Shown here: piece by piece, positions 46,311 to 62,768 of the stretch | Numbering within the stretch: position 1 is the stretch's first letter | Layout: each line of letters starts with the position of its first letter | NCBI GenBank assembly: GCA_964016885.1 | Contig: OZ024742.1 | Span: 317,874,001-317,938,000, forward strand | Direction: 5' to 3' | Length of the DNA: 64,000 nucleotides | DNA from: Eledone cirrhosa | Lineage: Eukaryota | The notes under the pieces: model-generated | What the model was told of the DNA's origin: nothing | The model's database searches: none | The model's input: the letters and a program-made list of their open reading frames with translations, nothing else | Program-made: the position numbers and the translations under genes

Positions 46311-48003
46311 TTCGTTTCTGAATTTGTTTAGCAAGATTCTTTATCTGAAATCGTGTGTTGAAACCGATATTGTTATACTTTGGGAGGGTCATGTTGCCAA
46401 TAAGAAACACACGCACCAGTTGCTTTCACTTCAATTTATTATATATTTATAAATTTATAAATTTACAAATTTACAAACTTATAAATTTCTGGTTGGTTGG
46501 TTGGTTCCACAACCAGATAGTTGTTTATATATAGTCATAGTCCTTTCGTCACACACTCTGTGACCTCTTCAGTGACTGGGGATTCCTTTCTTTGTTTCTG
46601 TGCCTTTCCTTTCTTCTATCCTACGCCATTTTGTTTCTGTGTGTGTGTTGTGTGCTCAGTTTGCGCATGCGCCACATCCGGGTGTCTGTGTGTGTTTGTG
46701 TTCATTTATCTATTTGTTTATTTATTTATTTATTTATTGTTGGTTGGTTGTTTGTTCTATGTGTGTGTGTGTTTTCATTTTGTCCTGTGTGTTTTCATTT
46801 TGTCCTTAATTGTAAGTTGTTTGTTCTATGTGTGTGTTTTCATTTTGTCCTGTGTGTGTTTTTATTTTGTCCTTAATTGTAAGTTGTGATGTTGCTGTTC
46901 CACTCATATTTTCTATTTAATTTTGGTTGTAATTCTTTTATGCTTACTGCCTCTGTAATTTGCCTAAACATTGCATCTTTTCTGTGTGTGGATTCTATTT
47001 TTATTTCTATGTTCTCTAATCTACCCCTGTGTTCTATCTTAGCATGTTGGTAGAGCACAGATGATTCTTTATTATCTTGGAGGTCTCGCCAGTGTTCATT
47101 TATTCGTTGCCCTATACTACGAGCTGTCTCACCTATGTACACTATATTTTTGTTTCTACATTGTCCTTCAGTACATCTTATGCTATACACTACATTTCTA
47201 GTTTTACAGTTAATATGGGGGCTTATTTTACAGGTTATACATTTCTTATCTATACATGAGGGTCTTTGGAACGGGTATGTCTTGCTAATAAGTGTTTTTA
47301 CGGAGATACCTGGTCTTTCTACTATCTTAATATTGAGTTTATGTTTATTTAGGGCCCTTCTAAATTTGTAGGCTAGATCGCCTCTAGGGGTTGTATTGAT
47401 GAACATTACACTCTGGTATTTATTGCTATCATACCATGAGTTCATTCTATTGGCCTTGTTCCTAGTTCTTTCTATTCTATTCCAAAATTTGCTCCTATAC
47501 AAGGGGCAGGTCCCATTTATGTCATTATTTACCATTTTTTCCCATTTGGTTCTGGCTCCTTTATACACTCTGATTCTATCTCTCTGATTGTAGCCAGAGA
47601 ACTGCATACGGTGGATGAAGTGTTGTATATGTCTCTCTAGTTCTTCGGGGTTGCACATGCGGGATAAATTTCTCATCACCCGTACCAAATCCGCAATCAG
47701 TATGTTGATTTTGGTATGGTCCGAAATGGCCGAGTTTCGGTGGATCAGATGTTTGGAGGTCATGGGTTTGGCATAATGGGAATGGAGGATTTGTTTTTGG
47801 TTGTTAATGGTATCTAACCAGAGCTCTGTGTCTAGTACAGGTAATCGATGGTTGGGGTGTCTACTTGGGTAGTCTATAGTAACTCTAATGCTCTGGTGGA
47901 TGGAGTTTGCTATTTGCTGGATGCTTTCCATTGTGTTTTTCTCTAGTTCCTGACTGTTCTTTAGTGGGGGTGTCTTAACTACGATGTTTATATCATCTAC
48001 GTA
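46311..48003 (-). mobile_element. Family B PLE with RT C-half, GIY-YIG and 3' HHR, between (TA)n tracts
   Basis: Open frame 46873-48003: [50 protein letters not shown]. Confidence 0.9.
46533..46577 (-). ncRNA. Type I HHR in family B 3' end
   Basis: AGTCA-CTGAAGA-G GTCACA GAGTG TGTGAC-GAAA-GGAC-TA-TGACT. Confidence 0.85.
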
Positions 48004-49885: not shown

Positions 49886-50068
49886 TTAGAAAGATCCGAA
49901 TTTTAGGGCATTGAGTACTGATTGAAATTTATTAATGAAATGTGTTTCCTTATTGGTGCGTTGGATGAAAGTAGCGTTGTCTATGAATTTGTAAATGGGG
50001 AAAATTGTAAAGTTTGGAAGTTGGTTGAGAGCACAGTTGGCGATATGTTCACTAAATGCAATCTTTCT
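49886..50068 (-). pseudogene. GIY-YIG C-terminal fragment of another PLE type
   Basis: SEHIANC..FTIFPI..R..KETHFINKFQSVLN; cut at (TA)n. Confidence 0.55.
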
Positions 50069-51705: not shown

Positions 51706-51751
51706 GTGTACAAATGCCACAAAGTGACCCGTTGCAAAACACGTATATGTA

Positions 51752-51787
<36 letters not shown>

Positions 51788-51789
<2 letters not shown>

Positions 51790-53759
51790 AATATAGACAT
51801 AGAATATTCGAAAATATTCTGTATGTTTATAATAAACATTTTGAAGACCTAATCGCTATAGAATAGAATACGTCACGTATTACAATTAGATTCTCGATAA
51901 AAGCAAGGGAAGTAAGTCTACGCGTTTCATTCTTGTTAGAATTCATCAGGACTACATATCCAGTGCTTTTATCGAGAATGACACAGCTAGAGACTTATAG
52001 AATACTTAGCTGTGTACAGGAACTGGTTTGAAAGAGCGGTTGCCGGTCCGGCAGAAATTAGAAATTGGAATAAATGCTCTGAAATAGCGATATATATGTG
52101 AATATAGACATAGAATATTCGAAAATATTCTGTATGTTTATAATAAACATTTTGAAGACCTAATCGCTATAGAATAGAATACGTCACGTATTACAATTAG
52201 ATTCTCGATAAAAGCAAGGGAAGTAAGTCTACGCGTTTCATTCTTGTTAGAATTCATCAGGACTACATATCCAGTGCTTTTATCGAGAATGACACAGCTA
52301 GAGACTTATAGAATACTTAGCTGTGTACAGGAACTGGTTTGAAAGAGCGGTTGCCGGTCCGGCAGAAATTAGAAATTGGAATAAATGCTCTGAAATAGCG
52401 ATATATATGTGAATATAGACATAGAATATTCGAAAATATTCTGTATGTTTATAATAAACATTTTGAAGACCTAATCGCTATAGAATAGAATACGTCACGT
52501 ATTACAATTAGATTCTCGATAAAAGCAAGGGAAGTAAGTCTACGCGTTTCATTCTTGTTAGAATTCATCAGGACTACATATCCAGTGCTTTTATCGAGAA
52601 TGACACAGCTAGAGACTTATAGAATACTTAGCTGTGTACAGGAACTGGTTTGAAAGAGCGGTTGCCGGTCCGGCAGAAATTAGAAATTGGAATAAATGCT
52701 CTGAAATAGCGATATATATGTGAATATAGACATAGAATATTCGAAAATATTCTGTATGTTTATAATAAACATTTTGAAGACCTAATCGCTATAGAATAGA
52801 ATACGTCACGTATTACAATTAGATTCTCGATAAAAGCAAGGGAAGTAAGTCTACGCGTTTCATTCTTGTTAGAATTCATCAGGACTACATATCCAGTGCT
52901 TTTATCGAGAATGACACAGCTAGAGACTTATAGAATACTTAGCTGTGTACAGGAACTGGTTTGAAAGAGCGGTTGCCGGTCCGGCAGAAATTAGAAATTG
53001 GAATAAATGCTCTGAAATAGCGATATATATGTGAATATAGACATAGAATATTCGAAAATATTCTGTATGTTTATAATAAACATTTTGAAGACCTAATCGC
53101 TATAGAATAGAATACGTCACGTATTACAATTAGATTCTCGATAAAAGCAAGGGAAGTAAGTCTACGCGTTTCATTCTTGTTAGAATTCATCAGGACTACA
53201 TATCCAGTGCTTTTATCGAGAATGACACAGCTAGAGACTTATAGAATACTTAGCTGTGTACAGGAACTGGTTTGAAAGAGCGGTTGCCGGTCCGGCAGAA
53301 ATTAGAAATTGGAATAAATGCTCTGAAATAGCGATATATATGTGAATATAGACATAGAATATTCGAAAATATTCTGTATGTTTATAATAAACATTTTGAA
53401 GACCTAATCGCTATAGAATAGAATACGTCACGTATTACAATTAGATTCTCGATAAAAGCAAGGGAAGTAAGTCTACGCGTTTCATTCTTGTTAGAATTCA
53501 TCAGGACTACATATCCAGTGCTTTTATCGAGAATGACACAGCTAGAGACTTATAGAATACTTAGCTGTGTACAGGAACTGGTTTGAAAGAGCGGTTGCCG
53601 GTCCGGCAGAAATTAGAAATTGGAATAAATGCTCTGAAATAGCGATATATATGTGAATATAGACATAGAATATTCGAAAATATTCTGTATGTTTATAATA
53701 AACATTTTGAAGACCTAATCGCTATAGAATAGAATACGTCACGTATTACAATTAGATTC

Positions 53760-53764
<5 letters not shown>
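51788..53764 (-). mobile_element. Retrozyme-like array 2: ~6.35 units of 311 bp
   Basis: Same unit as array 1 with one inserted G and one A>T; (TA)n both sides. Confidence 0.9.
51912..51955 (-). ncRNA. Type I HHR (also 52223, 52534, 52845, 53156, 53467)
   Basis: GTAGTC-CTGATGA-ATTCT AACA AGAAT-GAAA-CGCG-TA-GACTTAC. Confidence 0.9.
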
Positions 53765-53824
<60 letters not shown>

Positions 53825-54024: not shown

Positions 54025-54100
54025 ACTCCTGAAGAGTCCGATGCTCGAATTTCCGAAGATATTGGAAATCTCAAAATGCGGACGAAACCATGATAGAGGT
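54025..54100 (+). ncRNA. HHR candidate with extended helix II
   Basis: CTC-CTGAAGA-GTCCG..ATTTCCGA AGATA TTGGAAAT..CGGAC-GAAA-CCATGA-TA-GAG; helix III has one mismatch. Confidence 0.65.
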
Positions 54101-60863: not shown

Positions 60864-62768
60864 TGACTGACGAAGGAAGGGGTGATTACGGCGACTGAGG
60901 TAGGAAGGGTGATTACATCGACTGAGGTAGGAAAGGATGATTACGTCGACTAAGGCAGGAAAGGATGATTACGTCGACTGAGGTAGGAAGGGTGATTACA
61001 TCGACTGAGGTAGGAAAGGATGATTACGTCGACTGAGGCAGGAAAGGATGATTACGTCGACTGACGCAGGAAGGGTGATTACGTCGACTGAGGCAGGAAG
61101 GGTGATTACGTCGACTGAGGTAGGAAAGGATAAGAATGTCGACTGAGACAGGAAAGGATGATTACGTCGACTGAGGCAGGAAGGGTGATTACGTCGACTG
61201 AGGTAGGAAAGGATAAGAATGTCGACTGAGACAGGAAAGGATGATTACGTCGACTGAGGTAGGAAGGGGTGATTACGTCGACTGAGGCAGGAAAGGATAA
61301 GAACGTCGACTGAGGCAGGAAAGGATGATTACGTCGACTGGGGCAGGAAGGGGTGATTACGTCGACTGAGGCAGGGAAGGATGATTACATCGACTGAGGT
61401 AGGAAGGGGTGATTACGTCGACTGAGGCATGAAAGGATAAGAACGTCGACTGAGGCAGGAAGGGTGATTACGTCGACTGAGGCAGGAAAGGATAAGAACG
61501 TCGACTGAGGCAGGAAAGGATGATACGTCGACTGAGGCAGGAAAGGATGATTACGTCGACTGAGGCAGGAAAGGATAAGAACGTCGACTGAGGCAGGAAA
61601 GGATGATTACGTCGACTGAGGCAGGAAGGGTGATTACGTCGACTGGGGCAGGAAGGGTGATTACGTCGACTGAGGTAGGTAGGGGTGATTACGTCGACTG
61701 GGGCAGGAAAGGATAAGAACGTCGACTGAGGCAGGAAGGGTGATTACGTCGACTGGGGCAGGAAAGGATAAGAACGTCGACTGAGGCAGGAAAGGATGAT
61801 TACGTCGACTGAGGCAGGAAAGGATAAGAACGTCGACTGAGGCAGGAAAGGATGATTACGTCGACTGAGGCAGGAAGGGTGATTACGTCGACTGGGGCAA
61901 GAAGGGGTGATTACGTCGACTGAGGCAGGAAAGGATGATTACGTCGACTGAGGCAGGAAGGGTGATTACGTCGACTGGGGCAAGAAGGGGTGATTATGTC
62001 GACTGAGGTAGGAAAGGATGATTACGTCGACGGGGGCAGGAAGGGTGATTACGTCGACTGAGGCAGGAAGGGGTGATTACGTCGACTGAGGTAGGAAAGG
62101 ATAAGAATGTCGACTGGGGCAGGAAAGGATGATTACGTCGACTGAGGCAGGAAGGGGTGATTACGTCGACTGGGGCAGGAAGGGTGATTACGTCGACTGA
62201 GGTAGGAAAGGATGATTACGTCGACTGAGGCAGGAAAGGATGATTACGTCGACTGGGGCAGGAAGGGGTGATTACGTCGACTGGGGCAGGAAGGGTGATT
62301 ACGTCGACTGAGGCAGGAAAGGATGATTACGTCGACTGGGGCAGGAAGGGGTGATTACGTCGACTGGGGCAGGAAGGGTGATTACGTCGACTGGGGCAGG
62401 AAGGGTGATTACGTCGACTGAGGCAGGAAGGGGTGATTACGTCGACTGACGCAGGAAGGGTGATTACGTCGACTGAGGCAGGAAGGGTGATTACGTCGAC
62501 TGAGGCAGGAAGGGGTGATTACGTTGATTGAGGCAAGAAGGGGTGATTACGTCGACTGAGGCAGGAAGGGGTGATTACGTCGACTGAGGCAGGAAGGGGT
62601 GATTACGTTGATTGAGGCAAGAAGGGGTGATTACGTCGACAGACGAAGGAAGGAGTGATTACGTCTACTGAGGCAGGTAGTGGTGATGACGTCGCCTGAG
62701 GCAGGAAAGGGTGATTACATCCACTGAGGCAGGAAGGGGGATGACCTCGACTGAGGAAGGAAGGGGTG
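60864..62768. repeat. Minisatellite, 25-26-bp unit GATTACGTCGACTGAGGCAGGAAGGG(G)T
   Basis: ~73 units with recurrent variants (AAGGAT/AGGGT, GATTAC/AAGAAC, GAGG/GGGG); degenerate ends. Confidence 0.95.

Follow-up and report, generated by a model that had tools for sequence, protein, structure and literature searches.

Near-uniform, mostly two-armed retrozyme arrays in Eledone cirrhosa, each probably copied from one RNA monomer

The genome of Eledone cirrhosa carries near-uniform, mostly two-armed arrays of a 310-base repeat set in (TA)n. Each array is likely the product of one event, in which a Penelope-like reverse transcriptase (RT)/endonuclease copied one monomer, probably a closed circle. 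Two such arrays lie in the window, the whole stretch of 64,000 nt that was analyzed (contig OZ024742.1, positions 317,874,001 to 317,938,000). Sequence features place the repeat among the non-LTR retrozymes: the unit of 310 or 311 bp falls inside the class range of 150-450 bp, each window unit contains a type I hammerhead, the G+C content (106 of 310, 34%) is below the class limit of 50%, and there is neither a protein nor an LTR arrangement. Array 2 contains no reading frame of 150 aa. The family amplified recently. Using sequence patterns, we counted 16,307 occurrences of an internal 28-mer of the unit in the 3.0-Gb genome, and 16,905 core-intact ribozymes (15,535 without and 1,370 with the inserted base described below), the latter count leaving out forms with G at 276. 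At ~9 copies per insert, these ribozymes correspond to an estimated ~2,000 inserts. The features of the two window arrays were as follows.

1293..2878, minus strand: left arm of array 1 (5.1 units of 310 bp), ending 3' at the 'long' site
1456, 1766, 2076, 2386 and 2696, minus strand: hammerheads of the array 1 left arm
2873..4390, plus strand: right arm of array 1 (5 units), ending 3' at the 'short' site
2993, 3303, 3613, 3923 and 4233, plus strand: hammerheads of the array 1 right arm
51744..51787, no strand: (TA)n target of array 2, left part
51788..53764, minus strand: array 2, an insert with one arm that comprises 6.4 units of 311 bp
51912..51955, minus strand: type I hammerhead, first copy in array 2, variant with A10.1 and a C insertion in helix I
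51916, minus strand: inserted base at the third position following the predicted cut, recurring every 311 bp in array 2
51942, minus strand: U10.1 to A, closing helix II, recurring every 311 bp in array 2
52064..52098, minus strand: 35-nt 'tail' bounded by the two fixed 3' ends, with a 16-nt motif at 52075-52090
52223-52266, 52534-52577, 52845-52888, 53156-53199 and 53467-53510, minus strand: further hammerheads of array 2
53765..53818, no strand: (TA)n target of array 2, right part

Array 1 consists of two head-to-head arms overlapping by 6 nt. The RNA-sense 3' end of array 2 is at 51788, which is the short site and lies ~130 nt beyond the cut; its 5' end is truncated at unit position ~19, and the predicted cut in its first hammerhead is between 51919 and 51918. 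Compared from anchor to anchor, all six units of array 2 (311 bp) and all seven of array 1 (310 bp) were identical within their array, as the first-pass annotation had claimed from inspection by eye. Its further claim of exactly two differences between the arrays, both within the ribozyme, held in the unit comparison: one substitution converts U10.1.U11.1 to an A-U pair, closing helix II, and one inserted base yields a G-C pair and a bulged U in helix I. Both changes were present in all six hammerheads of array 2 (44 nt, minus strand), and the ten hammerheads of array 1 (43 nt) contained no variant. The full core was found in 16/16 window units. The form lacking the inserted base, at 52538, is present in other sequencing runs. 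Taken alone, the chance of two changes both falling in 43 of 310 nt is ~0.02. Such a ribozyme-only difference is typical of the family, since 1348 of 3803 differing insert pairs in the genome sample described below show the same.

The core of the motif, CUGANGA...GAAA...UA, is visible directly in the sequence. As read, a 6-bp helix I runs into a long stem, helix II has 4-5 bp, and the palindromic helix III has 1-2 bp and the cap CGCG, which is CTAG in three of five other aligned motifs. The A-U pair of array 2 is likely the derived state because U.U closes helix II in 5/7 aligned motifs from several families. At the gathering score, Rfam gave no match for the motif; the best weak match was Hammerhead_HH9 (17.8 of 52 bits, E 0.072). 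The unit folded better than shuffled sequences (z of -4.8 and -5.2). With the insertion, helix I is predicted to be weaker overall by 1.5 kcal/mol (-5.0 to -3.5 kcal/mol), and with A10.1 the predicted formation of helix II in the circle rises from ~0.15 to 0.93.

The window also contains other elements. An inverted pair of a different type I hammerhead, with G10.1-C11.1 and a CTAG helix III, occurs at 21132 (minus) and 21383 (plus) and constitutes a small two-armed insert of another family. Hammerhead motifs of other families are found on the plus strand at 25796, 39663 and ~54029-54099, the last having a long helix II (by eye) and lying 200 bp from array 2. On the minus strand, 22235-22343 matches the tail region of the unit at 78% and represents an older sister subfamily; 28897-31848 holds a broken non-LTR retrotransposon frame (RVT_1 and zf-RVT); and 46882-47337, 38865-39170 and 49904-50068 weakly match the endonuclease end of Penelope-like proteins. 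A 28-bp tandem repeat of ~69 copies occupies 60865-62768.

The genome sample comprised the two window arrays and 98 loci from contig 1, all within its first 245 Mb, of which 18 were chosen by the internal 28-mer and 80 by the long end. Units were compared with one natural unit as reference, numbered from the predicted cut. Eight of the 100 loci had fewer than two ribozymes, and the 92 inserts with two or more amounted to 873 unit equivalents. The inserts are dispersed in the genome. In 88/100, two head-to-head arms meet centrally at their 5' ends, and both arms carry the same variant. Every complete two-armed insert (85/85) pairs a short end, at unit position 125-139, with a long end, at ~165, as do 15/15 in a subset chosen independently of the end; the long end is at 165 in 89/95. 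This strict pairing argues that a single event on a single template employed both start sites. Array 2 belongs to the 12 single-armed inserts and has the short end. Neither arm end coincides with the ribozyme cut, and the 5' ends are scattered over the unit (4/174 within 5 nt of the cut; 5.6 expected), with a mean arm length of 1.4 kb.

By analogy, the interval from ~130 to ~165 corresponds to the 'tail' of Penelope elements. Older sister subfamilies, ~78% alike over the tail region, keep the 16-nt tail motif and stop at the same long site, and an independent deep sequencing run showed loose (TA)n ends at both 3' sites. Arms ended in (TA)3 or more in 178/185 cases, a proportion inflated by the choice of 80 loci by such an end. 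The insert at L047, outside pure (TA)n, has a 14-bp target duplication; elsewhere duplications are masked by (TA)n. Arm junctions overlapped by at least 2 nt in 52/87 inserts, a count made without a chance control. One four-part insert (L031, 2843-3020) has a small extra inversion at its arm junction. The tail length, the inverted 5'-truncated arm and the (TA)n bias match Penelope-like elements, which favors a Penelope-like enzyme.

Intact frames with RT and GIY-YIG domains, of 844-1096 aa, occur elsewhere in the genome, and the retrozyme unit itself contains none. The partner search scored 150 of 10,596 GIY-YIG candidates as well as 20 long-frame loci and sister-motif patterns. Among 50 GIY-YIG loci and 60 motif loci, no autonomous element with the ends of the unit was found, only nested sister retrozymes. 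Four candidates (L130, L164, L168 and L170) were nested non-coding inserts and a fifth (L208) was a decayed element. Several Penelope-like families, 44-52% alike between families, have open RT and GIY-YIG frames of 636-1096 aa (L159, L160, L161 and L162).

The uniformity noted in the two window arrays extends to the genome sample: units differed by a mean of ~0.6 per pair within inserts versus 3.4 between them. We found 40 array-wide alleles, present in both arms and forming 35 haplotypes among the 92 inserts; 22 of the 40 are known from one insert only. Fully uniform inserts numbered 27/92, and single-unit changes 184 (6.8e-4 per nt, junction-near noise included). Array-wide fixation argues that the template was a monomer. 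Of the proposal made from the window alone, that each array was copied from a single circular RNA in one rolling event, the 92 inserts give good support to one template and to reverse transcription beyond unit length, and they suggest circularity. Uniformity from one event did not hold throughout, as two of 92 inserts switch haplotype midway and three long ones show local duplication. Specifically, partly shared alleles were seen at eight loci, those at L118 being alignment noise. In three long arrays (L050, L051 and L073), a variant recurs in units apart from one another, and L096 has one variant in two units of one arm. At L087, the two ribozymes nearest the 3' ends of both arms have one haplotype and the others another; at L060, G276 occupies one entire arm and, in the opposite arm, the two inner units; and at L069, a variant lies in register in both arms. 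These patterns show other routes at work in at least 6/92 inserts (L087, L069, L060, L050, L051 and L073).

The repeats in the three long arrays are what would be expected if a short insert grew and was homogenized locally by unequal crossover or gene conversion, as in a satellite. As a general account, however, this route is highly improbable, and so is assembly collapse: alleles are common to both inverted arms, whose starts are fixed and whose ends are random, the 184 single-unit changes remain unshared, and the assembly resolves differences between single units in 65/92 inserts, so that the consensus collapse considered at first pass is not indicated. It is also improbable, if less so, that the same enzyme copied an uncut linear multimer from very young, uniform donor arrays, with circles playing a minor part or none. 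L087 and L069 fit a template read from one 3' region, and in the available text of Frangieh et al. 2024 (PMC11167929) the enzyme worked mainly on uncut RNA in vitro. A new change, however, cannot become fixed throughout an array that is copied from a linear multimer, and 22 single-insert array-wide alleles exist. Moreover, in-register variants in both arms occurred in two inserts versus ~57 expected from linear multimer templates aged at today's mutation load, and the sparing of the ribozyme core is left unexplained.

A single-molecule bottleneck is equally provided by a linear monomer on which the enzyme jumps from the 5' end to the 3' end, or by a host polymerase making uniform multimer RNA from a circle (RNA-to-RNA rolling circle). 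RNA-RNA replication has been raised for retrozymes in the accessible portion of Cervera and de la Pena 2020 (PMC7229834), and an excess of A-to-G over T-to-C at array-wide origins (19:5) would fit an RNA-stage change or a strand-biased copy. We consider this pair of routes marginally less probable than the linear multimer. Against jumping, 889 passes through the cut site revealed neither scars nor stops: at 308-3, substitutions confined to one unit numbered three and such indels were absent. Such seamless passage is what a closed circle, the proposed template, would give.

From the observed anatomy, uniformity and allele spectrum of the inserts, we infer a cycle of transcription, cleavage, ligation and circle copying by a borrowed enzyme. 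An array would be transcribed, and neighboring hammerheads would pair via the palindromic helix III, releasing monomers. These would be ligated, and as a hammerhead on its own, its loop 3 being 2 nt long, should cut poorly, circles would persist. The borrowed enzyme would break (TA)n and prime both DNA ends at the ~130 and ~165 sites of the same RNA. Both cDNAs would circle several times through the old cut site, stop randomly and join, often at short overlaps, and any change in that single circle would become fixed across all units. The cycle would pass only core-intact ribozymes, with common variants at tolerated positions (N7, loop 2, wobbles and bulges of helix I, and the U.U closing pair), some of them likely favored in combination.

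We examined where variation falls in the unit. Per site, differences between inserts were 11-fold higher in the ribozyme. The even spread over the unit that would have spoken against the first-pass reading was not found: alleles common to several inserts cluster in the ribozyme (10/18, P=4e-5), an enrichment weakened by their belonging to few lineages. Counting each array-wide allele once, 11/40 fell within its 43 nt (P=0.018; P=0.054 versus single-unit changes). Single-insert alleles were not enriched there (1/22), nor were single-unit changes (25/184, 13.6%; 13.8% expected). Thus, new changes appear evenly over the unit, and the ones that go on to spread lie mostly within the ribozyme. None of the 11 array-wide ribozyme alleles strikes the core or breaks a pair: five are at N7 or loop 2, four keep or make a pair, and two are helix-I bulges. 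By comparison, 14/18 single-unit ribozyme changes hit the core or broke a pair, excluding seven of the 25 events as arm-junction alignment noise (L077, L082 and L118). Among substitutions, 0/9 array-wide ones were damaging (69% of possible ones are; P=3e-5) versus 14/16 single-unit ones (Fisher P=3e-5). This pattern is an indirect signature of selection on the core. Tuning of the ribozyme has close to an even chance of explaining the enrichment; drift among few lineages under constraint is a distinctly less likely source, and RNA-stage hot spots are slightly less likely again.

The variant of array 2 is a sublineage of 8% genome-wide and is not locus-specific, its two changes being nested steps of that sublineage and not local events. 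A10.1 occurred in 19/92 sampled inserts, six of which had the insertion, and in all of the first 100 listed insertion copies (of 1,370). An array with G at 10.1 (L234-L238), in which G.U closes helix II, represents a second way to close the U.U pair. The same insertion on U10.1 was found in 228 copies, the first 100 listed all carrying C7 and G295. C7 lacking the helix-I insertion was found in nine copies, mostly alone, and the second helix-I bulge in the sample accompanies C7 (two inserts). That the insertion, among the copies listed, was found only alongside A10.1 or C7 hints at epistasis, a hint that comes from two or three origins. If a monomer is excised from a mixed array, recombination between its two ends could transfer the insertion. 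As the literature search gave no published rate effect of C7, we claim no direction for it.

A-to-G changes recurred at 276 (five backgrounds, UAG context) and at 20 and 259 (three each). The 19:5 ratio of array-wide origins differed from that of single-unit changes (13:20, P=0.003); per distinct allele, the excess was not significant (P=0.12). ADAR prefers a UAG context, and A-to-I editing of the RNA is a lead as a source of variants. Tentatively, these elements may be combined: each insert would be a clone of one circle, made by a Penelope-like dimer at two fixed sites; the ~17,000 copies would form a natural selection experiment in hammerhead tuning, with C7, A10.1 and helix-I bulges spreading only in compensating pairs; and A-to-I editing would feed in variants. 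If true, the core is filtered while compensating pairs balance multimer cutting against circle survival.

The unit was also found in 20 sequencing runs from 17 studies, with no RNA run among the 20 listed. In five runs labelled as other organisms (X4, X5, X6, X7 and X9), it forms one closed contig of 331-340 nt without flanks, at a depth of 10-365. Two Hi-C runs of one such organism yielded 0 reads in ~1.9 Gb each, which is no test of presence. Carry-over is at least as likely as horizontal transfer, and we claim no transfer.

If arrays are copied from single circles, the genome would serve as an archive of the ribozyme variants that have spread. The family turns the mobility of retrozymes, and the tandem and inverted copying of Penelope-like elements with its one-sided tail, into counts. 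It also offers ranked natural ribozyme variants with copy numbers to compare with measured rates, and its 310-nt unit could be the substrate in a rolling target-primed assay.

In L1 twin priming, both target strands prime and head-to-head arms join at short overlaps, and the second primer lands on a linear poly(A) RNA at internal positions that vary. Unlike there, both starts are fixed in the present family and both arms are multimers. For endonuclease-positive Penelope-like elements, the available text of Craig et al. 2021 (PMC8557442) describes an inverted truncated arm, a tail on a single end and a bias to (TA)n. The present inserts share the inverted 5'-truncated arm, the 30-40 bp one-end tail and the microsatellite targets, as well as two internal start sites ~90-165 nt past the hammerhead cut; they differ in having no reading frame and in repeating the whole unit, up to 22+ copies. 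As far as the text of Frangieh et al. 2024 (PMC11167929) was available, the Penelope-like protein studied cleaves AT-rich DNA and extends the two strands, with synthesis beginning at two internal sites; the interval between these is the tail, and a dimer was modelled. That anole enzyme used uncut RNA in vitro, its start site did not differ between strands, and ribozyme mutants inserted normally. The strict pairing of one short and one long end and the filtering of the ribozyme core set the present family apart from those results.

In the available part of Cervera and de la Pena 2014 (PMC4209133), a short palindromic helix III permits multimer cutting and spares monomer circles. The predicted ribozyme resembles the dimeric hammerheads of newt satellite 2 and Penelope pseudo-LTRs described there in its short helix III with a palindromic cap, and it differs in that U.U, not G10.1-C11.1, closes helix II in its commonest form. 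That a Penelope-like enzyme copies a circle by rolling reverse transcription is a published hypothesis for non-LTR retrozymes in the accessible text of PMC7229834 and PMC4209133. In the portion available, Li et al. 2026 (10.64898/2026.07.22.740005) tie retrozymes to Penelope pseudo-LTRs by phylogeny, leave mobilization open, discuss a satellite route and lean to local amplification. Their Xenopus multimers cluster at chromosome ends and centers, unlike the dispersed arrays here. Like metazoan non-LTR retrozymes in these accounts, the present family has a tandem unit with one type I hammerhead each, no protein and thousands of copies. Two-armed inserts, a fixed internal pair of 3' ends and a within/between-array analysis are absent from the available parts of PMC7229834 and Li et al. 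2026. In the main texts of the wider open-access literature, PMC7761336 among them, we found neither two-armed, paired-end retrozyme inserts nor array-level ribozyme variation; the bioRxiv supplements and Figure S9 of PMC7229834 may show insert anatomy. The retrozyme class and the rolling model are thus already published, and the strict end pairing and array-level variation make the mechanism testable.
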